A DNA stretch of 64,000 bases. Origin: Pristiophorus japonicus. Taxonomy: Eukaryota. The notes under the pieces are model-generated. The model ran no database searches and was not told the DNA's origin. It saw only the letters and a list, made by a program, of their open reading frames with translations. Numbering within the stretch: the first letter of the stretch is position 1; each line of letters starts with the position of its first letter. The DNA is taken from NCBI RefSeq assembly GCF_044704955.1, contig NC_091995.1:47430001-47494000 (forward strand). The letters are read 5' to 3'. Positions 4,320 through 29,055 of this stretch are shown here, piece after piece. Position numbers and translations under genes: made by a program.

Positions 4320-4880
4320 GTAAGCCGGAGGGGGAATGACAGTGTGTGCCCGCACAGCGGGCTTGCAGGTCGGGATGTGTCAGTATAACTGCGATCCCAG
4401 TCCCGGCCTGACCCCCCGAGTGACCAGGAGCCCAGCGGCGAGACTCCTGCAGGAACGTGGCTCGGTCGCTTCGAGTTCACACTCCAGCCGGCGGGAAGCT
4501 GCACTTTAAAAGCTTCATTGTACCACTTGGGAACTTGAATACCTTTTAAAGCTTCCGATCAATGAGACAAATCATTAAATATAGAGGGGGAGGGATTGAT
4601 TTTAATCGCAGGGGGAACGGGTGCCAGCGACCCGGGAACCTATGTTGCACCTTCCGATTCGCGTCAGGATGAAGCTTTGAGGCGACCCGTACAGGTTCTG
4701 GTGAAGTTTGATCTCCCAGAGTTTACCCAGCTGTTTCGGACTGAGCCGCTGCATATTTGCAACATTTGCTGCTTTGATCAGATTTCCACCATGTGCAGTT
4801 CCACTCGGGATTGGTGATGCTGTGCGATGGGGTAAAGTGGGCGACAGCGAGTCCCGCCCGTTTCCCATCTTTCTCTCCAT

Positions 4881-5540
4881 TTATGATATAATTGGCATCA
4901 CTGAGACATGGCTCCAGGGTGACCAAGGCTGGGAACTCAACATCCAGGGGTATTCAACATTCAGGAAGGATAGACAGAAAGCAAAAGGCGGTGGGGTAGC
5001 GTTGCTGGTTAAAGAGGAAATTAATGCAATGGTAAGGAAGGACATTAGCTTGGATGATGTGGAATCGGTATGGGTGGAGCTGCGGAATACCAAAGGACTG
5101 AAAACTCCAGTGGGAGTTGTGTACAGACCACCAAACAGTAGTAGTGAGGTTCGGGACAGCATCAAACAAGAAATTGGGGATGTGTGCAATAAAGGTACAG
5201 CAGTTATCATGGGCGACTTTAATCTACATATTGATTGGGCTAACCAAACTGGTAGCAATACGGTGGAGGAGGATTTCCTGGAGTGTATTAGGGATGGTTT
5301 TCTCGACCAATATGTCGAGGAACCAACTAGAGGGCTGGCCATCCTAGACAGGGTGATGTGTTATGAGAAAGGACTAATTAGCAATCTTGTTTTGCGAAGC
5401 CCCTTGGGGAAGAGTGACCATAATATGGTAGAATTCTTTATTAAGATGGAGAGTGACACAGTTAATTCAGAGACTAGGTTCCTGAACTTAAGGAAAGGTA
5501 ACTTCGATGGTGGAGGCGTGAATTGGCTAGTATAGACTCG
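4881..5540 (+). mobile_element. CR1 LINE, 5' part (APE endonuclease), interrupted by the provirus
   Basis: YDIIGITETWL, GGGVALLVKE, GVVYRPP, MGDFN, SDHNMVEF motifs; CR1 sequence resumes at 16051. Confidence 0.92.
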
Positions 5541-6856
5541 TGTAAGGGGTTTTCTCAGGGAGTGTTGTTGTGCCTTGGGTGTCTCTCTCTGGGCTTCTGC
5601 CCTCACAGCTTATGCCTGGCCTGTGAGGTACCCTGAGTGCTGCAAGAGCACCCCTGGAGAGACTGTGCCCACAGCTTATGAAGGGGGTTTTTAGGCTCGT
5701 GCGTCCCCACAGATTATGCCTAGCCTGTGAGGCACCTGTGAGTGTCAAACACTCCTAACCCCTTCTTCCATAGCCTGTGGCATACAGTTGAGCATTTTCG
5801 AGGCGCTCTTAGCTTCCCTTACACGGTTCTGACATAAGACTCACGATCAGGAGATGTAATACAATAGAACTGAGACAAGGTGATTTCAAGAGGAACTTTA
5901 GGCTTCCAATTTATTTGACAAGGTGTATCTCAACAAACAGCAATACACCAACAAAACAATCCCCCTAAATCCCACTAAACGGACACAATGAAAATCTTTA
6001 CACAAGTTTAGCAGTACAATGCCCAACCTCCCACCTTTCCTGGCCTAACTGAGTTGGGAGTTCTGGGTACCAGAGGTTATACTCACTACTGTGCCTTCTG
6101 CAGTCTAGTGGTTTGTTTCTTCTATCTTCGGTGTCTTCGGACACTGGTTTTCCTTCAGTGTCGAGAGTCTTGCTGGTTGTGGTTGTTGGATGACGAGTGC
6201 AGGGAACCACACACACTGCGTCAGAAACCCCTTTTTATAGCCAGATTATCCAATCCGCCTCTCCTGCTGAAGTCGATTCTTCTCATTGGTGGACTTTGTG
6301 ATTTTGAAAAATGCAGCAGTTTTAGATTATTGCGGGTTTTTTTTCCACTGATGTTAACCTACTCAAGGTTTGAGTGGGTGTTGATTGCATTGGTCTCCTG
6401 TAGCCATTGTATAGGCCCTTGGGTTGTTTTGGGTTCTCTGGTTTCTAAGGTCTGCATAATTTTCCTTCAATTCAGTTTTTCTAACCTACTCAAGGTTTGA
6501 GTAGGTGTTAGTTGTGTTGGCCTCCTGTAGCCATTGTGCAGGTCCCTGGTTTGTTTTGGGTTCCCTAGTTTTCTAAAGATCTGCATAATTTCCTTCCATA
6601 GTGTAAACATGGGGAAGACAATAGTCCGATAATGGCTGTGAGTCAGTTCCAGTTTTCGAGCAAGTGCTCTCCCATTGGCTTGAAAGCCCCATATTTCGGG
6701 CTGACTCTGTCTCACCATTGGCCCTCCGGTGTCCTCCCCCGTCCAATCACTGCTCTGCCAAGGTCAAACTGTTATCGATTTCAATTCACAGCACAGACTG
6801 ATCCCACAGCCCTTTTCCTTCTGGGTAAAATGAGGGGGTTTTCGTCCTCCCCTACA
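5541..6856 (-). repeat. 3' LTR
   Basis: Matches 14731-16046 at a constant offset of 9190, about 33 substitutions by manual count; minus-strand AATAAA at 5910-5915. Confidence 0.95.
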
Positions 6857-6870
6857 TAATCCCCCATCTG
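6857..6870 (-). promoter_or_regulatory. Polypurine tract (short)
   Basis: Minus strand reads AGATGGGGGATTA directly before the 3' LTR start TGTAGGGG. Confidence 0.6.
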
Positions 6871-7235
6871 ACACAGTCAGACACCACTCGAGTGTGTCAA
6901 AGTTCAGGGTGCTGAGAAAACCCGAGGTCTCCCAAATTGCCCAACTTTCCCCAGTTTAACTCTAAACTGATCCCGTCGTTATATATCGTAATTCCTTTTA
7001 ATGCGGTACAAAACACAGAAATCCAACAGGTTACAATATACGACAGCAATATACATATATGTACTTAAGGTTACAGCAGCAATTGTACATTGAGTCTCAT
7101 TTCAGTCTTAACCGTAAAACAAAGAAACCTGCCCTGCAAACACCCCAGGGGCCATGTATGAAAACGCAGTCATCCCTGGGAATAATAAAACCGCCTAAGT
7201 GTCGCGGTCAAACTTTGTTTACACACCTTGAGTGT

Positions 7236-8368
7236 TTAGCAACGGCTCTCCTGTCTGTGTAGTAGCCTGAGGAACTGCTTTCTTTTTCTTTTTCTCCTGA
7301 GCTTACAGCGTGTAACTAGCAGATAAGCTACAATCAGGAGTTGGTCGATTACTAAGGCATACGCCCAAATCCCACCATGCTGGGGGTTTAATCTGGGCAA
7401 TCTCCCCTGCTAGAATTTCAGTTTTCTGCTCCATGGTGTAAAAATGTTTTTGAGACTAATCCACTGCCTGGAGGAGGGCTGTAAGTTTCCTGGTATAACA
7501 GCTCGGTTTCCCAGGAACACCACGTAGGTAGGCGGACTTCTGTCAGATTTAGCACCACTGATGCCACTGCGTAGTGTACCCCCTGATAAAGTAGTTTCTC
7601 GGTAGGGACCAACACTAAACCATTCCCCGGCCCCCTGGTTGTTGTCGGGCACTCGTGTGGGATGGTGGGCTTGGCCGTGGGTGGGGATTTTCTTTCCCGA
7701 ACTACAAGTTCGGCGGCGTTTACTGGTATCTGGGGATTGGGGGTTACACACGCTTCCCCGCTGTGATCCAATACCACCCCATCCCCGACATCCTGCCACC
7801 ACCTGTAGAAAGCAATGGAGAACCCCTCTGAACACACGCGAGTGCATCCCCACATACACAAATAAATTCCTTGGTTGTACGCCCACCATTTCTCCCAGCA
7901 CACCGTTACCCCGCCAGATGACCCCATGATGGTTCGGTAGGTATCATTATCCAGACGTTCCCAGTCCGAGTGTCGGTCTCCCATGTCCCTCTTGAGCTTT
8001 CTGAGCCACCACCACCGTCCCAGAGGTTTGTCCCCTTGGCAAGTTAGGCATACCTTCCTGCCTGCTGTCACTCTCACTCTGGAAGTGGCCACAGTGATCT
8101 CCGGGCAGGGGATGGAGGCCTCTCCGTAGGTAAAGTCCTTATGGTTGGAGTACTTGGTGGAGTTCGGTCCCAATCACCCAGGCCATCTCCCCTCGTGGGA
8201 GTAGGTGACCCGGCCATCTGCCGCCAGAGTCCCTTCTCCTGTGGTCACTGTCGGCGCTCTGCGCCCGGAGCATCCGAAAACCAGGGAGTCCTCGGTGTCC
8301 CCTCGGTGTCCGGTGCAGATCCTTAGCGATACCAGCATCACTGACGTCCAGTAGGGAGGTGTTGATAT
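7236..8368 (-). pseudogene. env: env-like gene with Ig-like N-terminal domain, internally deleted
   Basis: Splice acceptor tgttcttcttgcctttcag at 8369; ORFs 8174-8425 and 7418-8173 are in one frame separated by a TGA; after about 7487 other frames give a heptad segment LTALLQAVD*SQKHFYTMEQKTEILAGEIAQI, PPAWWDLG, a TM-like ALVIDQLLIVAYLLV and basic tail KLRRKRKRKQ. Confidence 0.75.
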
Positions 8369-8749
8369 CTGAAAGGCAAGAAGAACATGGCCTTGCCTTG
8401 AGAGACCTCTCCAGGCTCGGCCCACTTAATATGTTCCAAACACAAAAATGCTGTACCCAACCGTCACTGCCTTACCTAAACACATATGCACACAACACAA
8501 AGTAACAAAACAGGAAGGGAAAATATACACACCGCCACCCGTCCCCGGGTGGCCAGGCTATATCCTGTCACTGTACAGGTGTCGTCGACCACTCGGCTGA
8601 CCATACCCTGGGGACCAGGATGCCCTCTGCTGAGGGGCTCGTATTGTCCCCCTTAATGGGTCTGGTGCTGCCCTCCAAGGCCCTCCCGAGCCCTGGATAA
8701 TCGGTGGGAGACCCTTGCGAGCGCAACAAAGCACCCTCCCTGTTGTCTT

Positions 8750-11700
8750 TCACCTTCTCGGTCTGGGGCGGGGAACTAAGTAAACAGGGGACCACGGCGC
8801 CCTGGGTTGTGGCACTCTGTCACTCCTCCTTACTGTCAGTGCAGAGTCCCACGTTATGGGCTGCAATGCTATCTCCTCCACCTCTTGGGTTAGCCCCAGC
8901 TGATCCACCATGGGAGGTTCAGCTTCCCCTTGGACCTTGCTAATGGTAGAGCCTTTCTCCCTACTTCTGTTCGTGGGCTGGAAACCACTACCCAGTGGTG
9001 GGATAGCCTTACTGGAGCAGTGAACCAGCCCCGGCTTTAGAGCTTCGGGGCCCGCTCCCTCCTCCGGAGCCTCCAAATCCACCAGGGCCTGTTCTTCCCC
9101 CAGTGCCTGATTCCCTTCCCTTGCTCGTTCCCTCTGTTTTTTTACCTCTTTTGGGGTCAAACAATTTACACTGATTACTGTGATACCACTTCACCCGGTG
9201 AGGCAATCGAACCGCATAGACCATAGGGCTAGCCTTGTCGACTATGCTGTATGGTCCCATATACATTGGTTCAAATACCCCGACCCGGGCGAAGCTTCTC
9301 ACCATCACCTGGTCGCCCACCTCCCAATCATGGTGACTGCGGGGTTCCAGCAGCAGCCGATTGGCACGGTGCTGTTTACCCATGTTGTTGGCCGCCTGCC
9401 AGTGAATCTGTTGAAGCTGTTCAAACAGATTCCTGACGAAGCAGTCCCGGTTCACCTCTCGAAGTTGCCCTTCGATGAGAACCGGCGCCAACACATGCAC
9501 TGGGGTTCTCATGATCCGGCCCGTCATCAGCTCATGGGGTGAGTACCCTGCGCTCTTTGACTGACTGGCCCAGATTCCCATGAGGACCAACGGTAAGACC
9601 TCCACCCACTTGTTTGGTGAGTCTCCCGTCTCCTTGCGCAGCCTTTCCTTTAGGATCCGGTTCAGGCGTTCTACGGGGCCTGAGGACTGAGGGTTGTAGG
9701 CGACATGCCATTTGGCTCTTATCCCCAGCACCTTTAGGGTGGCCTGCATCACCTGGCCGGTGAAGTGGCTTCCCCGGTCGGACTCCACGATTTGAGGTAG
9801 ACCCCACCGAGAGAACACCTCCCTCACCAGGATTTTTGCAGTCCCCACCGCGGTAGCTGTTCGGCAAGGGAAGGCTTCCACCCACTTGGAAAACACATCC
9901 ACCAGGACGAGGCAGTATTTATAACCTCCCTGGGCGGCCGGAAGGGGTCGATCTGGATTGACTGCCATGACCCCTCTACCCGCCTGACGTGTCCCATAGA
10001 CACCTTCCTTTTCTGAGAGTCTGGGTTGTTTGCAGCGCAAACCAGTCAGCCCGCACAGAAGTTGCGGACGTCTTCCCGGAGGCCTGGCCACCACCCTGCC
10101 TTTTCTACCCGTTGCCAGGTAGATTCCGGCCCAGGGTGTCCCGCACCTGGACCCTCATGGGTCAGCTGAAGGAATTCCCTCCGGTGTTGTGGCGGCACTA
10201 CCCATTTGTCCCCTTTAAACTTCCCTCACAGCAATATCTACAGCACTGTATGGGCCCTCTGCCTTCTCCCCCTTTTTGATAGCAGCCATGGCAGCCTTCA
10301 GGATCGGATCCTCCATCTGGACTACTTTAAGGTCCGGGGCCGCAGCCGCCCCTACGCTCCCTTGTGTCCCGGGCTTGCTTCTTGCTGCTGCTATCCTGCC
10401 TGTCTCGTATGGGTCCCATGGGCGACCTGTACGAGCACCTTCCCTTGCCAGCAGGTCTGCCTGCTGGTTACCTTCCCCCCGTGGCTCAGTTTTGGAGTGG
10501 GCCTTTACCTTATGGATATATACATCCCCGGTTTCTCCCACTGCAGCCACGATCTTTTCTAGCAGGGGTTTGGTCACAAGGGGCTTCCCATCCGCAGAGG
10601 TGTACCCCCGGCGTGACCAAATCGCCAGATACTCTGTACACGAATTGCAAGTGAACATGCTGTCCGAGCAAATCGTGTGTGGGGTAGGGAATTCCTCGGG
10701 GTGTGTGACCACATACATCACCGCCGAGAGTTCTGCCTACTGGGCGCTCAGGGTGCATGGGAGTTTAAGAGCCAAGGCAATTCCTGCCTTGGGATCCCAA
10801 ACTCTGCAGCCCGTGAGTCTTGTACCCGCGGACACTGAACTGGAGCCATCAACGTCGATTTCGTGGCTTGTGGGGTGTATCCCTGCCCGAAATCCAAAGT
10901 TAATGTCCCATACCCCCTCCACAGAGCATCTATGCGGCTGCCCTGGATAGATTAAATTTGCTGCGAGCCTGGGCTCGCAGAGGCCCTTGACCTTTAAAGT
11001 CATTTTGGAGAGGAGGAGGGTCCAGCGAGTGATTCTAGCACTGCTCACTGTCCCGTCCAACAGCATCTGCGTCGGGGTATGATGGGTGAGGAGTGTAATG
11101 GGGGATATTCCAGTAAAGATCTGAGCTCTCTTTACTGCCCAGTGGGTGGCAAGCAAGTGCCTCTCACAATTGGAGTATCCCTTTTCTACCTCCGTGAGGA
11201 CCCTGGAGGAGTACACCACTGGTCTCAGCTGACCGTTTTGTTCCTGGAGCAACACTGCACTTAAGCTGTCACCACTGGCTGCCACCTCCAGGAAGAATTC
11301 CTCCCCCCCATCAATTGCCCCGAGGGCTGGTGCTACCTGCAGGTCTCTCCTAAGACGGACAAATGCTGCCTCACAGCCCTCGTCCCATTCCCACTCGACC
11401 CCCTTATGTAGGAGTCTGAGCAGAGGGGCGGCAGTGGCTGCATAGTCCTCGATGAAGTCCCTACAGTAGCCAGTGATTCCCAGGAAAGACCTTACCCCTG
11501 ACACATCCCTAGGGACAGGGAGTTCCTGCACTGCCTTTCTTCCAGCCTCATCAATGGCCCTTTCTCCTGCCCTTATCATCAGGCCCAGGAATTTTACCTC
11601 TCCTAGATCTATCTGGGCTTTCTTGGGGTTAACTTTAAAACCCCCTTCCTTCAATAAGACCAGCAGTTCGGCCAGCAGTGGACCGTGTTCCTCACTGCTG

Positions 11701-12797
11701 TCTGTGAACAACAACAGGTCGTCCACATACTGGACCAGCTGGTGTGGGTGGCTGAAGCCTATTAAGCAGTTCGCCATGCATTGGTGAAAGATGCTGGGAC
11801 TATTATGAAAGCCCTGTGGGAGGCAGCTCCATGTATACTGCTGTTCCCGGAAGGTGAAGGCAAACTTGTACTGGTCTTCCCTCCGTACAGGGATAGACCA
11901 GGACCCGTTGGATATGTCCAACACTGTGAACGTGGTTGCGGATGCAGGGATTTCCCCTATCAGATCCGTAACCGCCGCTACTGTGGGAGCACAAGCTGGG
12001 ATGTTTTTATTGAGCACCCTATAATCCACCGTAGCCCTCCAAGAATTGTCCGGTTTCCTAACCGGCCAAAGCGGGGAGTTGACATGGGTGGCTATGGGTC
12101 TCAAAACACCCTGCTCGACAAGCGAGCTCAAAGCTGTCTCCAAGTCTGCTTCTGCCTCTCGGGGAAAGCTATACTACTTTTGCGGGCGGGACATGGGATC
12201 CTCATCTATTCTAACCTCCACTCCTGTGACTCTCCCACAATCGTGTTTATGGGTGGCAAATGCTGCAAGATTTGCTTGCACATAGGCCCGGTACTTGGCC
12301 GGGGTGTTACCGACCAGAACCTCCAGGTCGTAATCCACTTTTGGCTTCATTGTACACAGAGTCCCTTTTCCCTGTTTCTTATCAATAACCATGACTTCTC
12401 CCTCTGCTCCCGTGCCCACTGTACCCCATAGACAGTGATTCCTCAAGTCTACTAGGATCTGGCGAGCGATGATGAAATCAGCCCCCAAGATCCGTTTTCC
12501 CACCTGCTCCCAGTTCATCAGGACGCACTTCCATTGTGTTTGGAGTGCTCCCAAACGAACTGCGAGCGGGACTGAGAAAAACCCAGCCTTCTCATTACCT
12601 GTGAACCGAACTAGTTGATACGGCACCCCGCTTGATAGAGGTGAGGTTGCGGGGTCCTCCGAATGGACTATCGTGCTGGATGCACCAGTGTCCAAAAGGT
12701 AAGTACCCAATACACCCTCAACCTCCATCTTGACCCAGGGTCGTCCCCAGGGGTCGTATTCTAGTGGGCACAGGTAGGCAGGCTGGGTCTGGGCTAG
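8750..12797 (-). pseudogene. pol: pol: protease, RT, tether (degenerate RNase H), RNase H, integrase
   Basis: PR LLDTGAS and ILGADF; RT NSPLWPVRK, LPQGFHNSP, YVDDLL; tether EVAAS...RPVVYSSRVL; RNase H VDGSS, SAQ*AEL, SDS, KVKAHS, GNQQADLLA; IN VDVFSKWVEA, ESDRGSHF, PQSSGPVERLN, GPY; stops at 12174 and 10737, frameshifts near 10215, 9950 and 9140. Confidence 0.92.
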
Positions 12798-14726
12798 TCA
12801 CGGCCTCTGTACTGGCAGGGTTGCTGGTGCTTCCCTGCCTGTTGCTGTGGCTACCTTCCCAGTCCCCTCCAGTGCTGTCCTCACTGCAGCTACAATCTCG
12901 TCAAGGGATGGTGAGGAGCTCACTCCATTTCCCCCACTCTGGGCGGCTCCTAAAGAACTTCTCCCCCCATATCTCTTTACTGGGCTCCTGCAATCCCTTT
13001 TAAAATGCCCAGCTTTCCCGCACCCGTAGCACACTCCCTCCTTATCAGACGAGTGGCCACCCTCCTGGTGCCATTCCCTTTTGGGAATCGAGTTGGGATT
13101 TACTGCATTTACCCGACCTTTGGAGGTTTTCTCCTCCTCCCCTCCTCCATTCCATTGGACCAGTGCCAGTTGCCTGACCACTGCTTCCTCGGTGAGGTTG
13201 GGGTCCCGGGAATTGAACCACAGTTCTGCCCTGGCCTTGAGCCGGGGCAAGCAGTTTGTCACTAGCATCCTCAGCCAGCGGCCAGTCTGTACCGCGGAAA
13301 GATTCGCCCGGTCGAGGAGCTCCCCACAGGCTGCGTGGTATACCACCCACAACCTGTCCGCAAACGTCTGCGGGGTTTCCCCTGCGAGCTGCCTTGTCCT
13401 TTCGACCCGTTCGAAAGGACTGCCGTCATCGAAGCCCATAGCCTCAAGGACGGCCCTCTGGACCTCAGTAAATGTACGCTATCCCCTCCGGCATTCTGCC
13501 GGTAGGGCCTGGTACAATTTGCTGTCCAGAGAGAAGAGCAGCAGCTTGGCTGTCTCTTCCTCGTCGCACCCATTAATTTCTCCTGCCTACACCACCTCCA
13601 TGAAGTGGATGGACGGGTCCCCGCTGCGAGTGAGTTTGGCCAAATGGGCCACCATGGCCCTGAATGATTGAACTCCATGGGGAATAATAAAGTCGCTCTC
13701 CAGCGCTCCCCGACCTTGGCCACCTCCCTGTGGAGGACCGTACTTGCGCTGCCTGACTGGGCACATCCGCCCTGGTCCAGGATCTTTCTGCGCTGGTCCC
13801 TCTACCTCCGGCTGTCCCACCATACCCGGTGCAGCAGACAGTGCCTGGTCGCCTGATCCAGCCCTTAACTGACCCTCTGCTGGAGCCTCACATCCCTGCT
13901 GCCGAGCGGGACACATTGGTCCTGCCCCCAGCCCTGGGTATGCTACGACCTGCGTGCCCCGCTCCTCCTGGTACCCCACCGGACAAACCACCGGTGCCTC
14001 AGGAGGTGGTCGGGCGTCTCTTGTCTTTGGATTCTCCTCTACCCCCCAATACTCTCCTTTGTCCCCTGTGGACCCTCTGGGTCCTATCAGGGTGACCATC
14101 CCCTTTGCCTGGGATAGAGCGTGGGTGAGAGTTTTAATCCTCTCCTGGCAGGGACCGTGATCTGCAAACTCACTGCTACTGGCCACTTTGTAGGCTGCCT
14201 GCACATCTTTTAATTTATTCTCTAGTTACCAAATCTTCTGGGTGTACCGAGAGTTCTGTTCCCGGAGGGACCCCTCACTACCCTTGGCCTCAGTAACCTG
14301 ACACTGAAGATAGTCCCGGCAATTTCGGAAGGTCTCCTCCAACTGCCGGTTCCTTTGCTACTCCTCAGCTAATTCGGCCAGCAGGTTGTCCCCAACCGCA
14401 GCCCGGATAGCAGAGAGCTCCTCTGATTTCTGAAGACTCTGTTCCAAGTCCTTCACCCGCTGGTCGAGCATTCGGACTTGGCGGGTGAGGCAGATAAGCC
14501 AGATAGCCTTTTCCACCCTGTGGTTGTGGTCCTTCCCTGCTGTCCACTGAGCAGCAGCATCCACTGGGCGCTCTGCCCGAGTGAGGGCTTGCACCCAAGG
14601 TTTGGTGAGGTTCACCTTGCCAAAAATGTATGAGGAAATTCTCTCCTCCATTTTAGTTTCCTCTCTTATCACCTCATCTGTTATATTAACATCTCCTGTT
14701 TGCTTATGTCCTGCCGCGGTCACCAT
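12798..14726 (-). pseudogene. gag: gag: N-terminal coiled coil, capsid-like region, CCHC zinc knuckle
   Basis: Same-frame ORFs 14358-14726, 13587-14204 and 12798-13439 broken by stops; CYGCGKAGHFKRDC; QLAGETPQTFADRL (MHR-like); heptad-rich QVRMLDQRVKDLEQSLQKSEEL. Confidence 0.88.
14708..14725 (-). promoter_or_regulatory. Primer binding site, tRNA-Arg
   Basis: TGGTGACCGCGGCAGGAC is complementary to the vertebrate tRNA-Arg 3' end GUCCUGCCGCGGUCGCCA (recalled sequence) with one G:U pair. Confidence 0.8.
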
Positions 14727-14730
14727 GTTC

Positions 14731-16046
14731 TGTAAGGGGTTTTCTCAGGGAGTGTTGTTGTGCCTTGGGTGTCTCTCTCTGGGCTTCTGCCCTCACAGCT
14801 TATGCCTGGCCTGTGAGGTACCCTGAGTGCTGCAAGAGCACCCGTGGAGAGACTGTGTCCACAGCTTATGAAGGGGGTTTTGAGACTCGTGCATCCCCAC
14901 AGCTTATGCCTAGCCTGTGAGGCACCTGTGAGGGTCAAACACTCCTAACCTCTTCTTCCCTAGCCTGTGACACACAGTTGAGCATTTTCAAGGCGCTCCT
15001 AGCTTCCCTTACACGGTTCTGACATAAGACTCACGATCAGGAGATGTAATACAATAGAACTGAGACAAGGTGATTCCAAGAGGAACTTTAGGCTTCCAAT
15101 TTATTTGACAAGGTGTATCTCAACAAACAGCAATACACCAACAAAACAATCCCCCTAAATCCCACTAAACGGACACAACGAAAATCTTTACACAAGTTTA
15201 GCAGTACAATGCCCAACCTCCCACCTTTCCTGGCCTCACTGAGTTGGGAGTTCTGGGTACCAGAGGTTATACTCACTACTGTGCCTTCTGCAGTCTAGTG
15301 GTTTGTTTCTTCTATCTTCGGTGTCTTCGGACACTGGTTTTCCTTCAGTGTCGAGAGTCTTGCTGGTTGTGGTTGTTGGATGACGAGTGCAGGGAACCAC
15401 ACACACTGCGTCAGAAACCCCTTTTTATAGCCAGATTATCCAGTCCGCCTCTCCTGCTGAAGTCGATTCTTCTCATTGGTGGTCTTTGTGATTTTGAAAA
15501 ATGCAGCAGTTTTAGATTATTGCAGGGTTTTTTTCCACTGATGTTAACCTACTCAAGGTTTGAGTGGGTGTTGATTGCATTGGCCTCCTGTAGCCATTGT
15601 ATAGGCCCTTGGGTTGTTTTGGGTTCTCTGGTTTCTAAGGTCTGCTTAATTTTCCTTCAATTCAGTTTTTCTAACCTACTCAAGGTTTGAGTAGGTGTTA
15701 GTTGGGTTGGCCTCCTGTAGCCATTGTGTAGTTCCTTGGTTTGTTTTGGGTTCCCTAGTTTTCTGAAGATCTGCATAATTTCCTTCCATAGTGTAAGCAT
15801 GGGGAAGACAATAGTCCGATAATGGCTGTGAGTCAGTCCCAGTTTTCGAGCAAGTGCTCTCCCATAGGCTTGAAAGCCCCATATTTCGGGCTGACTCTGT
15901 CTCACCATTGGCCCTCCGGTGTCCTCCCCCGTCCAATCACTGCTCTGCCAAGGTCAAACTGTTATCGGTTTCAATTCACAGCACAGACTGATCCCACAGC
16001 TCTTTTCCTTCTGGGTAAAATGAGGGGGTTTTTGTCCTCCCCTACA
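14731..16046 (-). repeat. 5' LTR
   Basis: Direct repeat of 5541-6856; minus-strand TATAAAAA at 15422-15429, CCAAT near 15475-15479, AATAAA at 15100-15105. Confidence 0.95.
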
Positions 16047-16050
16047 CTCG

Positions 16051-18190
16051 CAAATGATACTTAAAGGGTTGACTGCAGATAGGCAATGGCAAACGTTTAA
16101 AGATAGCATGGATGAACTTCAACAATTGTACATTGGAATAAAAATAAAACGAGGAAGGTGGCTGAACCGTGGGTAACATGGGAAATTAAGGATAGTGTTA
16201 AATCCAAGGAAGAGGCATATAAATTGGCCAGAAAAAGCAGCAAACCTGAGGACTGGGATAAATTTAGAATTCAGCAGATGAGGACAAAGGGTTTAATTAG
16301 AAGGGGGGAAGTAAAGTATGAGCGGAAGCTTGCTGGGAACATAAAAATTGACTGCAAAAGCTTCTAAAGATATGTGAAGAGAAAAAGATTTGTGAAGTCT
16401 TTGCAGTCAGATTCAGGTGAATTTATAATGGGGCACAAAGAAATGGCAGCCCAGTTGAACAAATACTTTAGTTCTGTCTTCACGAAGGAAGACACAAATA
16501 ACCTTCCAGAAATACTAGGGGACTGAGGATCTAGTGATAAGGAGGAACTGAAGGAAATCCTTATTAGGTGGGAAATTATGTTAGGGAAATTGATGGGATT
16601 GGAAGTGGATAAATCACCGGGGCCTGATAGTCTGCATCCCTGAGTACTTAGGGGAGTGGCCTTAGAAATAGTGGATGCGTTAGTGATCATTTTCCAACAG
16701 TCTATCGACTCGGGATCAGTTCCTATGGACTGGAGGGTAGCTAATGTAACACCGCTTTTTAAAAAAGGAGGGAGAGAGAAAACCGGTAAGTATAGACTGG
16801 TTAGCCTGCCATCAGCAATGGGGAAAATGTTGGAATCAATTATTAAAGATGAAATAGCAGCGCATTTGGAAAGCAGTGATAGAATCGGTCCAAGTCAGCA
16901 TGGATTTATGAAAGTGAAATCATGCTTGACAAACCTTCTAGAATTTTTTGAGGATATCACTATTAGAGTGGACAAGGGAGAACCAGTGGATGTGATGTAT
17001 TTGGACTTTTAAAAGGCTTTTGACAAGGTCCCACACAAGAGATTGGTGTGCAAAATTAAAGCACCTGGTATTGGGGGTAATGTTTTGACGTGCATAAAGA
17101 ACTGGTTGGCAGACACGAAGCAGAGAGTCGGGATAAACGGGTCCTTTTCAGAATGGCAGGCAGTGACTAGTGGGGTACCGCAGGGCTCAGTGCTGGGACC
17201 CCAGCTCTTTACAATATACATCAATGATTAAGATGAAGGAATTGAGTGTAATATGTCCAAGTTTGCAGGTGACACTAAGCTGGGTGGCGGTATAAGCTGT
17301 GAGGAGGACACTAAGAGGCGGCACGATGACTTGGACAGGTTAGGTGAGTGGGAAAATGCATGGCAGATGCAGTATAATGTGGATAAATGTGAGATTATCC
17401 ACTTTGGTGGCAAAAACACGAAGGCAGAATATTATCAGAATGGCGGCAGATTAGGAAAAGGGGAGGTGCAACGAGACCTGGGTGTCATGGTACATCAGTC
17501 ATTGAAAGTTGGCATGCAGGTACAGCAGGCGGTGAAGAAGGCAAATGGTATGTTGGCCTTCATAGCTAGGGGATTTGAGTATAGGAGCAGGGAGGTCTTA
17601 CTGCAGTTGTATAGGGACTTAGTAAGGCCTCACCTGGAATATTGTGTTCAGTTCTGATCTCCTAATCTGAGGAAGGGCGTTCTTGCTATTGAGGGAGTGC
17701 AGCGAAGGTTCACCAGACTGATCGATTCCTGGGATGGCAGCACTGACATATGAGGAGAGAATGTATCGACTGGGCCTGTATTCACTGGTGTTTAGAAGGA
17801 TGAGAGGGGATCGAATAGAACCATATAAAATTCTGACGGGATTAGACAGGTTAGATGCAGGAAGAATGTTCCCGATGTTGGGGAAGTCCAAAACCAGTGG
17901 ACACAGTCTAAGGATATGGAGTAAGCCATTTAGGACTGAGATGAGGAGAAACTTCTTCACTCAGAGAGTTGTTAACCTGTGGAATTCCTTACCGCAGAGG
18001 TTGTTGATGCCAGTTTATTGAATATATTCAAGAGGGAGTTACACATGGCCCTTACGCTCGGAGGATCAGGGCTATGGAGAAAAAGCAGGAAAGGGGTACT
18101 GAGGTAAATGATCAGCCATGATCTTATTGAATGGTGGTGCAGGCTCTAATGGCCGAATGGCCCACTCCTGCACCCATTTTCTATGTTTCT
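16051..18190 (+). mobile_element. CR1 LINE, 3' part (RT and tail), continuation of 4881-5540
   Basis: Resumes at caaatgatactt after the TSD; [27 protein letters not shown]; tail ttttctatgtttct. Confidence 0.92.
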
Positions 18191-28278: not shown

Positions 28279-28369
28279 GTAAGTCAAACCACGGGACTTG
28301 TGCGGCTATATTCTTTATTGCACGACATGACCGCCAGCGTGAACAACATATTGGACCCGTGTATAATCT

Positions 28370-29055
28370 GAGTTAGTTACACTGACTTACTCCGTGTTTA
28401 GTCCAGTTTACACAAACTGTTTCCATGTTTAGTCCGGGTTACACTGACTGTCCCATGTTTCGTTCGGGATACACTGACTTACAGCGTGTTCAGTCCGGGT
28501 TAGACTGACTGTCCCGTGTTTCATCCGGGATACACTGACTGCCCTGTGTTTAGTCCCAGTTACACCAACTGTCCCGTGTTTAGTCCGGATTACACTGACT
28601 GCCCTGTGTTTAGTCCGGGTTACACTGAGTTTCCCGTGTTTAATGCTAGTTACACTGACGGCCCTCGTGTTTACTCCGGGTTACAATGACTGCTTCGTGT
28701 TTAATCCGGGTAAACTGACTGCCCTGTGTTTAATCCAGTATATACTGACTGCCCTGTGTTCAGTCCGGGTTACATCGACTGTCCTGTGTTTAGTCCGGGA
28801 TATACTGACTGCCCCATGATTCGTCCGGGATATACCAACTGCCCCGAGTTTAGTCCAGAATAAACCGAGTGCTCCGTGTTTGGTCCGGGATGCAGCGACT
28901 GTCCAATGTTTAGTCTGGGTACACCGACTGCTCTGTGTTTAGTCCGGGATACACCGACTGTCCCGTGTTTAGTCCTGTTACACCGACTGATCCGTGTTTA
29001 GTCCGGGATACACCTACTGCGCCCCCCGTGTTTAGTCCAGGTTAGGCCGACTGCC
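28370..29055 (+). repeat. 30-bp minisatellite, about 23 units, in MHC-I intron 1
   Basis: Consensus near TACACTGACTGTCCCGTGTTTAGTCCGGG(T/A), contiguous units. Confidence 0.92.

Follow-up and report, generated by a model that had tools for sequence, protein, structure and literature searches.

Positions 5541 to 16046 of the window, a 64,000-nucleotide stretch of the sawshark Pristiophorus japonicus genome, hold a provirus in decay, one of many copies of a young family of endogenous retroviruses. With good confidence, we place the reverse transcriptase (RT) of this family inside canonical Retroviridae, likely in the deep grade related to snakehead retrovirus (SnRV; clade Huo), and predict that its envelope protein (Env), a homologue of lokiretrovirus Env, is a class I fusogen of paramyxovirus-F type.

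Structure of the provirus

The window element is a real provirus on the minus strand (Table 1). Its gene order (LTR-gag-pro-pol-env-LTR), together with a primer binding site (PBS), polypurine tract and target duplication, is the canonical layout of Retroviridae. An earlier note on this DNA had reported paired LTRs, a target duplication and a PBS, and all of these were recovered; the PBS starts 5 nt past the 5' LTR. The LTR pair matches at 1283 of 1316 positions without gaps (97.5% identity; K2P 0.0256), and both flanks of the provirus map end to end onto another LINE copy within the window.

Table 1 Features of the provirus and its insertion site (window positions).
Feature	Position	Strand	Remarks
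Interrupted LINE, endonuclease part	4705..5536, resumes 16051-17500	+	Exo_endo_phos E 6e-12
Left target-site duplication CTCG	5537..5540	.	CTCG on both sides of element
3' LTR, 1316 nt, TG...CA	5541..6856	-	
Polypurine tract, 3 nt before 3' LTR	6860..6869	-	Equal context in other copies
env remnant	7236..8368	-	Signal-peptide region, Pro-rich linker, start of F-like part, membrane-proximal end, TM
Probable Ig-like domain in env remnant	about 7925-8104	-	
pol	8558..12797	-	Broken: two stops and frameshifts; other natural copies have an open frame of 1423 aa
Integrase: HHCC region, DDE core (about 9690-9938), GPY/SH3-like C-terminal part	9177..10200	-	
Second, catalytic-type RNase H, one internal stop	10434..10860	-	RNase_H E 2e-14
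Tether, degenerate Ty3-type RNase H	11004..11387	-	RT_RNaseH E 8e-21
RT core, LPQGFHNSP and YVDD in frame	11577..12062	-	RVT_1 E 8e-30
Aspartyl protease, LLDTGA	12471..12734	-	Pfam E 3e-5
In-frame TGA between gag and pol, CTAG next	12798..12800	-	Likely readthrough signal
gag, one CCHC knuckle, probable N-terminal coiled coil	12801..14726	-	Four premature stops
PBS, tRNA-Arg(TCG)	14708..14725	-	17/18 to host tRNA-Arg(TCG) 3' end
5' LTR, 1316 nt, TG...CA	14731..16046	-	
5' LTR AATAAA	15100-15105	-	
5' LTR TATAAA	15424-15429	-	
Right target-site duplication CTCG	16047..16050	.	

The coding domains were identified with Pfam, run on stop-to-stop pieces of the window. The CCHC knuckle (zf-CCHC, E 2e-4), both RT motifs, the retroviral arrangement of a degenerate tether plus a second catalytic-type RNase H, and the integrase (rve, E 6e-16) with GPY in an SH3-like C-terminal domain had each been noticed earlier and stand. 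The four acidic motifs of the second RNase H could be placed in a natural copy, and weak matches of another copy's Gag to coiled-coil families make an N-terminal coiled coil plausible. The TGA-CTAG junction, identical in the window and in all ten fetched copies, is likely a readthrough signal.

Besides the stops in gag and pol, the window copy differs in length from others near 10220, 9949 and 9143, each time with a shift of frame. The env-like gene described in the earlier note is present as a remnant, shorter than other copies by about 1.16 kb at 7489; the deletion takes the furin site, fusion peptide, heptad and fusion core. Neither Gag, Pol nor Env can be produced from this copy.

A young, high-copy family

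The assembly contains at least 150 copies with RTs 95-100% identical, and the search for intact copies that the earlier note suggested yielded an open 1423-aa pol frame in about 28 of them. We fetched ten copies from among the best RT matches, a choice biased to young, intact ones, and in nine of these the LTR K2P was 0-0.010. Of nine copies that include both ends, seven have a 4-bp target duplication, one has 5 bp and one an imperfect duplication. The PBS was identical to the host tRNA-Arg end (18/18) in eight of nine fetched copies scored, and the copies use three distinct tRNA-Arg primer sites between them. The family is young and high-copy, and has recently invaded this shark genome on a large scale. 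Because env is retained in many young copies, their sequences suggest spread through germ-line reinfection. The element is also covered by contigs from four runs of unrecorded kind, with depth highest over the predicted R region; we do not take this depth as evidence of expression.

Transcription of an intact member would run from the TATA box of the 5' LTR as far as the AATAAA of its 3' counterpart. Gag would be translated, and Gag-Pol would arise through UGA readthrough. Host tRNA-Arg and the purine tract would prime reverse transcription, in which the second RNase H would cut and the tether would serve as a spacer; the DDE integrase would carry out integration. Env would come from a spliced RNA and be cleaved by furin at RQRR to free the fusion peptide, and its N-terminal Ig-like arm would probably bind the receptor.

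Placement of the polymerase

Lokiretroviruses are defined as an RT clade, and the earlier note had assigned the element to them. The RT and RNase H trees that it proposed as a check do not join the element to that group. The RT+tether tree, with 41 rows and 398 columns, gave the canonical retroviruses, the window among them, a support of 100/99 and set lokiretroviruses apart as a clade of their own (100/100); the RT-alone tree (67 rows) gave the same split, with the window in the retrovirus clade at a support of 99. A clade of the window and lokiretroviruses was rejected in the RT+tether topology test (AU p=0.0005), which holds under the tree model used. The RT+tether tree omits 26 of the 67 rows (near-duplicates and long branches; P0115, the SSSV-like row and the single row for class II are among them), and class II is represented only in the RT-alone tree. 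Lokiretroviruses were represented by natural loci L032 and L033 and by database proteins assigned through their PFGY motif and near-identity to published lokiretrovirus RTs; Odin, fish foamy-like ERV, CmiERV and ERV4 sequences were not among the rows of any tree.

Among named viruses, SnRV has the RT core most similar to that of the window, yet at just 42% identity (213 bits), compared with 38% (174 bits) for lokiretroviruses, 35-37% for gammaretroviruses and 30-32% for foamy viruses; lokiretroviruses are 65-93% identical to one another. Over RT+tether, BLAST scores for lokiretroviruses (258 bits) and SnRV (254 bits) were level. Motif B of the window is LPQGF, whereas the published lokiretrovirus RTs examined have PFG[YL] (PMC7947760, supplement), and LPQG and PQGF had no matches in the accessible part of that supplement. 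Judged from its sequence, the RT lies inside canonical Retroviridae and the element is not a lokiretrovirus.

It is very improbable, in our view, that we are dealing with a true lokiretrovirus with a divergent RT, the first from cartilaginous fishes, even though the two share several features. Both have a tether plus second RNase H and a similar integrase (PMC7947760), tether motifs resemble each other, the in-frame TGA-CTA junction recurs in two natural lokiretrovirus loci (as TGA-CTAG in L033), and a coiled-coil Gag is described for Bik-1 (bioRxiv 2024.03.25.586437). The Envs are also homologous (see below). However, the tether plus second RNase H is not diagnostic because it is common to all retroviruses; the one lokiretrovirus Gag tested lacks the CCHC knuckle; and, beyond the RT clade and motif, a quick RNase H tree (150 columns; a short domain with moderate support) grouped lokiretroviruses with foamy viruses (89) and left the sawshark family outside. 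A tether combined with an F-like Env does not identify a lokiretrovirus.

Among named groups, lokiretroviruses have the integrase most similar to that of the element (223 bits, against 141 for SnRV). A quick integrase tree placed it weakly with lokiretroviruses (88), and its acquisition from them by recombination was considered; the careful tree did not group the two and agreed with the RT tree, and we dropped this idea. CGIN1/NYNRIN itself was not among the integrase rows.

The expectation of a chondrichthyan host was correct (mitochondrial proteins of the assembly are an exact match to those of P. japonicus), as was the remark on a chondrichthyan gap among lokiretrovirus hosts (0 of 6 genomes positive; PMC7947760, Fig. 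S1). Because its RT nests on the canonical side, the sawshark element does not fill this gap, as had been proposed, and the gap remains. A degenerate lokiretrovirus RT motif had no match across the sawshark genome, and the best matches to a natural lokiretrovirus RT query reached 43%, with 150 of the 156,774 candidates scored. The six best matches carried PQGF, except one with PYGF, and the three placed in the tree were all on the canonical side. These searches are no proof of absence.

Relatives of this element appear in databases under names such as "Gypsy retrotransposon integrase-like", and some invertebrate Ty3/Gypsy elements carry an F-type env (bioRxiv 2023.10.26.564294). Nonetheless, a Ty3/Gypsy retrotransposon (errantivirus- or Tat-like) that acquired an F-type env along with its second RNase H is scarcely credible here. 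Two fully supported branches of the RT+tether tree separate the window from Gypsy-type rows, MLV-type and foamy RTs ranked above Ty3 in a PDB search with the RT, and Metaviridae have a single RNase H, unlike this element, whose RT lies outside them. The RT-alone and RT+tether trees refute such an identity.

Within canonical retroviruses, the element also differs from foamy viruses (Spumaretrovirinae). The two share YVDD and LPQGF, but foamy RTs do not group with the window; foamy Gag is not known to carry a zinc knuckle, foamy Pol is made separately from Gag, and tRNA-Lys serves as the foamy primer. ERV4 lacks a Gag zinc finger and GPY/F and has a 5-bp target duplication (PMC4299795), whereas the sawshark family has CCHC and GPY and mostly 4-bp duplications.

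Likenesses to SnRV are more numerous. Both have LPQGFH, YVDD, an in-frame gag-stop-pol arrangement, a Gag with one CCHC and a coiled coil (probable in the sawshark family) and an Env homologous in its fusion part, and the SnRV PBS is, we assume, Arg-type as well. On the other hand, the SnRV junction is TAG-GGC instead of TGA-CTAG, its Env frame has 1134 codons (777 aa in the sawshark family), and it has a long frame between env and the 3' LTR, none being seen in the sawshark family; pairwise BLAST of the two Gags matched the zinc knuckle alone. Surveys file what appear to be comparable elements as SnRV-like (PMC4131045; PMC6001957, which places SnRV-related ERVs across vertebrates in clade Huo), and SnRV-related ERVs are known from the elephant shark (CmiERV lineage I; PMC4422223). 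The sawshark family likely sits in this deep, SnRV-related grade.

The nearest Pol relatives (P0003-P0009, P0114), annotated as "NYNRIN-like" or "Gypsy integrase-like", come from frog, coelacanth and turtle and are 42-50% identical over RT+tether. The window and its relatives formed an eight-row group in the RT+tether tree (92/91, below the level of strong support) with SnRV outside, and on this tree the family appears to share a deep lineage with elements of frog and coelacanth. A clade with SnRV was absent from every best tree, with the backbone unresolved, but was not rejected (AU p=0.118). It is possible, with somewhat less than even probability, that these shark, frog, coelacanth and turtle elements are an unnamed deep lineage no nearer to SnRV than to other retroviruses, perhaps near the root of Retroviridae. 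The retention of a lokiretrovirus-like junction, integrase and Env would fit such a position, in contrast to the filing of such elements as SnRV-like in the surveys above. This would be a refinement of our preferred placement, and it is compatible with the same reading of Env.

A predicted F-like envelope

Because the window env has lost its core, its F-like nature was read from other natural copies, one of which encodes an Env with a signal peptide, RXKR-type site, fusion peptide, coiled coil and TM. Lokiretrovirus Env is F-related with the same series from the cleavage site to the TM, but lacks the N-terminal Ig-like arm (562 aa in L033). A profile of 34 family Env sequences matched lokiretrovirus Env at 98.3% (HHalign, E 1e-14) and SnRV Env at 94.1% (E 1e-7), against 6.3, 2.1 and 0.9% for three control Envs (MLV-type Env, 6%, among them). 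The SnRV N-terminal match was weak (phmmer E 0.002 among 6 sequences), and direct pairwise BLAST of lokiretrovirus with SnRV Env gave no match (best E 1.3). By these profile comparisons, sawshark Env is homologous to both Envs and closer to that of lokiretroviruses, and SnRV Env would itself be F-like.

Compared by sequence with PDB and Pfam, Env gave only chance-level matches plus a sub-threshold Ig match (E 0.002-0.017), in a low-confidence region of the model, where we consider an N-terminal Ig-like domain probable. In the Env of a natural copy, neither PF00523 nor any retroviral Env family was found with Pfam, and the CX6CC motif that, along with an immunosuppressive domain, characterises the TM of gamma-type Env was absent. 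The AlphaFold model was of moderate confidence (mean pLDDT 63, pTM 0.40) and its structural matches have high rmsd. Its top PDB match in Foldseek was foamy Env (8rm0, E 5e-5), and those in BFVD were lispivirus, paramyxovirus, baculovirus and walleye-retrovirus glycoproteins (E 2e-14 to 1e-8). Against NDV F the model scored Z 10.4 (rmsd 18.1, 364 aligned), and its 13 best VIA rows were F proteins or foamy Env, with no others. The model thus predicts a paramyxovirus-F-like class I fusogen, and the relationship to Mononegavirales F and lokiretrovirus Env suggested earlier is borne out through the profile and model of natural copies. An Atlas search with Env returned one unnamed chordate cluster at 0.84, which we regard as a lead only.

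Skate, other sharks and frogs have related, unnamed Env proteins (P0049, P0059, P0060, P0067, P0096; E 1e-160 for skate to 8e-4 for a Mantella frog), which point to an old association. Env and Pol of these relatives were compared as separate proteins. We found no virus-group description of either the Pol or the Env relatives in the literature searched.

It could be argued that a SnRV-like gag-pol took its env, and perhaps its integrase, from a lokiretrovirus, so that the F-type Env is not ancestral here. The closer Env profile, the integrase similarity and the env swapping reported as common in anamniote ERVs (bioRxiv 2021.11.23.469661) are in line with such a recombinant. We nevertheless consider it unlikely, given the agreement of the careful integrase and RT trees and the old association above. 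Moreover, since F-related Envs are present in SnRV, walleye epsilonretroviruses and foamy viruses too, this reading would require several separate captures.

Implications for retroviral envelopes

SnRV-related shark ERVs are already known (PMC4422223). New here is evidence for F-type Env on either side of the split between lokiretroviruses and Retroviridae, which suggests that this envelope may be old among retroviruses. Our search found no paper on retroviruses of P. japonicus and no statement that SnRV-type Env is F-like; Repbase/Dfam and subscription journals lay outside it, and prior accounts of either are possible.

Previous work found no significant similarity of lokiretrovirus Env to canonical retroviral Env and preferred separate env acquisitions (PMC7947760, PMC9040795). 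This view was already weakened by foamy Env structures, which have a paramyxovirus-F-like core (PMC11468914). More tentatively, the family may mark a deep branch of retroviruses in sharks, skates, coelacanth and frogs that has been active until recently, and its F-type Env may connect those of lokiretroviruses, SnRV, walleye epsilonretrovirus and foamy viruses; the ancestor of lokiretroviruses and Retroviridae would therefore have had a paramyxovirus-F-like envelope, with gamma- and beta-type Envs as later replacements. If true, this would reverse the model favoured so far, in which env was captured independently (PMC9040795). Under the same tentative reading, near-identical LTRs and open frames would mean that the family may still be invading its host genome. 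A canonical-side Env that matches both lokiretrovirus and SnRV Env offers a bridge to a single Env tree for lokiretroviruses, SnRV, epsilonretroviruses and foamy viruses, and opens to testing the question of which envelope retroviruses had ancestrally.

Provirus structure and host

The element is a real provirus. Its two LTRs align without gaps (1283 matches, K2P 0.0256), the target duplication CTCG is present at both sides, and, because both flanks align end to end with a second LINE copy of the window, the provirus interrupted a LINE. Pfam searches of natural stop-to-stop pieces gave the domain order CCHC knuckle, protease, RT, tether (a degenerate Ty3-type RNase H), separate RNase H, integrase core, and SH3-like tail. 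The window copy is dead: gag carries four stops and pol two, there are length differences that shift the frame, and env is shortened (see the table). The shark host, guessed in the earlier note, is confirmed by mitochondrial ND6 and cytochrome b sequences that are letter-for-letter those of Pristiophorus japonicus, and pieces of the same env are present in nuclear gene models of this species. The rest of the window (16051-64000) consists mainly of pieces of LINEs (endonuclease, RT, esterase-type ORF1) and low-complexity tracts, with one 30-nt tandem array; no host exon was identified there among frames of at least 170 aa.

Features of the sawshark provirus and its surroundings (window coordinates unless the contig is named)
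Feature	Position	Strand	Remarks
LTR pair	5541-6856 and 14731-16046	minus	1316 nt each; TG start, CA end
Primer-binding site (PBS)	14708-14725		
LTR-PBS spacer with ATG	14724-14730		5 nt, conserved
Length differences that shift the frame	near 10220, 9949 and 9143		
Shortened env	7489		~1.16 kb missing
Divergent upstream part of U3	15600-15960 and counterpart in other LTR		~LTR positions 84-446
30-nt tandem array	about 28360-29020		
L081-L082, further family members	contig 47410001-47430000	plus	directly left of the window

Placement among retroviruses

The earlier note had also proposed membership in the lokiretroviruses, which Wang and Han define by RT clade and, in the accessible text of their paper, report from 0/6 chondrichthyan genomes (PMC7947760). 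This proposal was not borne out. Trees were built from natural sequences only. The lokiretrovirus loci (L032 and L033), found by motif scan, match published RTs nearly word for word, and the L033 Env matches PF00523; the snakehead retrovirus (SnRV) locus has an RT identical to the published SnRV row. The foamy, gamma, epsilon, and Gypsy rows are presumed to be such from motifs and genome lengths, not from record names. Odin, fish foamy-like ERVs, elephant shark ERVs (CmiERV), and ERV4 are absent from the trees, as is class II from the careful tree. In the RT-only tree (67 rows), a branch with support of 99 set lokiretroviruses apart, and the window was placed with canonical retroviruses, also at 99. 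The RT+tether tree (41 rows, with 26 near-duplicate and long-branch rows left out) recovered lokiretroviruses at 100/100 and canonical retroviruses, including the window, at 100/99, and a clade of the window with lokiretroviruses was rejected (AU p=0.0005).

The window RT motif LPQGFHNSP resembles that of the SnRV row of a published alignment (PMC9040795, as far as available). PFG[YL] occurs in every published lokiretrovirus RT passage compared, and LPQG has no match in the accessible supplement text (PMC7947760). RT placement, the LPQG motif, and the AU test speak against lokiretrovirus identity; the element is not a lokiretrovirus. Among the best hits of a genome search, no true lokiretrovirus was found in the sawshark.

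The family RNase H lies outside the group of lokiretroviruses and foamy viruses. For integrase, BLAST similarity is highest to lokiretroviruses and a quick tree joined the two weakly; the careful integrase tree, unlike the quick one, agrees with the RT tree. Several features lean toward lokiretroviruses: Env and integrase similarity, the TGA-CTAG junction, and BLAST scores that are level over RT+tether. We read them as ancestral traits retained by a slowly evolving lineage, although env may have been captured from a lokiretrovirus.

In the RT+tether tree, the window joins (92/91) Pol proteins of frogs and coelacanth, and further unnamed ones, that carry database names such as 'NYNRIN-like' or 'Gypsy integrase-like'. 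Of the named viruses, SnRV comes closest in the RT core (42%) and shares its gene layout with the family, but it is not sister to the window in the best trees, whose backbone lacks firm support, and a joint clade was not rejected (AU p=0.118). In the accessible parts of the publications, SnRV-related ERVs are described from elephant shark (PMC4422223), Xenopus (PMC4131045), and, as clade Huo, all major vertebrate groups (PMC6001957). The available text of PMC4299795 treats them as still unclassified and describes some with GPY/F and with a zinc finger in Gag, features that the sawshark element has too. The presence of such an ERV in a shark is to be expected. Two more deep-branching retroviral families with PQGF-type RT occur in the sawshark genome, one (L076) near the window's lineage and the other (L075, L077-L080) elsewhere among canonical retroviruses, as placed by L075/L077.

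Envelope protein

The Env of a natural copy (777 aa) has a signal peptide, an N-terminal domain that is probably Ig-like judging by sequence (Pfam Ig_3, E 0.002-0.017, below the cut-off), a Pro-rich linker, and RQRR at 327. Next come a hydrophobic peptide and long helices, then a beta region rich in Cys, a transmembrane segment near 734-757, and a basic tail; CX6CC is absent from this Env. Env relatives were found in skate, Mustelus, Chiloscyllium, and three frogs. By HHalign, the family Env profile matched lokiretrovirus Env (98.3%, E 1e-14) and SnRV Env (94.1%, E 1e-7) but none of three control Envs (6.3, 2.1, and 0.9%).

The Env model had a mean pLDDT of 63 and a pTM of 0.40, higher in the core and low in the N-terminal arm. 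Foamy Env was its only PDB Foldseek hit at E <0.001, and 51 viral glycoproteins in BFVD reached that threshold, including paramyxovirus F and baculovirus F. Each of the top 13 VIA rows was an F protein or a foamy Env, the best at Z 10.4 with an rmsd of 18.1 and 364 aligned. The rmsd values are high, probably because a monomer was modelled in a shape intermediate between the pre-fusion and post-fusion ones. Also among the BFVD matches were the Env models of walleye epidermal hyperplasia virus 1 (Q9WHI8, E 4e-12) and walleye dermal sarcoma virus (A4GTG3, E 3e-9), which suggests that epsilonretrovirus Env is F-like as well.

Our Env call rests on the agreement of three methods, not on any single score. 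The F-like fold of foamy Env is already published (PMC11468914), with no mention of snakehead or loki in the accessible text. Viro3D surveyed class I fusogens, the available main text mentioning neither snakehead, loki, epsilon, nor walleye (PMC12583693), and an anamniote Env survey was, in its accessible portion, limited to gamma-type Env (bioRxiv 2021.11.23.469661). In the papers accessible to our literature search, SnRV-grade Env was nowhere described as F-like or as a homologue of lokiretrovirus Env.

Env pieces also lie inside four database entries (P0050, P0051, P0057, P0090) whose names read Niban-like, cadherin-related, zinc-finger, or F-box; the first two come from sawshark gene models. 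Chimeric annotation is the probable cause, and exonised env a possible one.

Copy family and proposed life cycle

An RT query of the genome gave at least 150 matches, the 150 scored all being at 95-100% identity and about 28 of them (counted by eye) holding a 1423-aa frame. A query from the env core absent from the window gave at least 150 matches, the 150 scored all at 94-100% identity, with frames of at least 795 codons in roughly 30 of them (by eye). From the best RT hits we retrieved ten copies, of which seven were picked for the 1423-aa frame. They show a gag of ~640 aa, an in-frame stop, a pol of 1423 aa, and an env of 777 aa, all three genes being open in 2/10. LTR-pair K2P was 0-0.010 in nine copies and 0.027 in one. 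At published rates of 2.2e-9 (PMC7947760) or 2.2e-10 (PMC4422223), which may not fit sharks, the window copy would have an age of ~6 or 58 million years, and that of the youngest copies would be near zero. Of nine copies that have both ends, seven show a target duplication of 4 bp and one of 5 bp; in the remaining copy it is imperfect.

The window and all ten fetched copies have TGA-CTAG between gag and pol; UGA-CUA(G) is a known readthrough context. Three PBS sequences occur among the copies (the window and L013-L029), each corresponding to a different host tRNA-Arg gene (two TCG, one CCG) with 16-18 of 18 positions matched, which suggests primer switching during real reverse transcription. 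An ATG formed by the LTR-PBS spacer has a good Kozak context, overlaps the PBS, and is in frame with gag; were this candidate the gag start, Gag would differ in its first residues according to the primer tRNA.

The layout and junction of the element, its primer sites and target duplication, and the placements and homologies described above were observed. By analogy with retroviruses in general, the LTR would drive transcription, UGA readthrough would yield Gag-Pol, tRNA-Arg would prime reverse transcription with catalysis by the second RNase H, and env RNA would be spliced. Env may then be cleaved by furin and act in class I fusion, the putative Ig-like arm binding a receptor, and the family may have spread through reinfection.

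The upstream part of the window U3 does not align with that of the youngest copies and contains an internal repeat spaced at 127 nt; the window LTR is a distinct, older U3 subfamily. The two internal regions left of the window (L081 and L082) are in tandem with a common middle LTR, end ~165 bases short of the window, and each retain 1423-aa pol and 805-codon env frames. Contigs from a sequencing run labelled as a different organism span the whole element with few differences, which may point to a closely related organism, a labelling problem, or a recent transfer.
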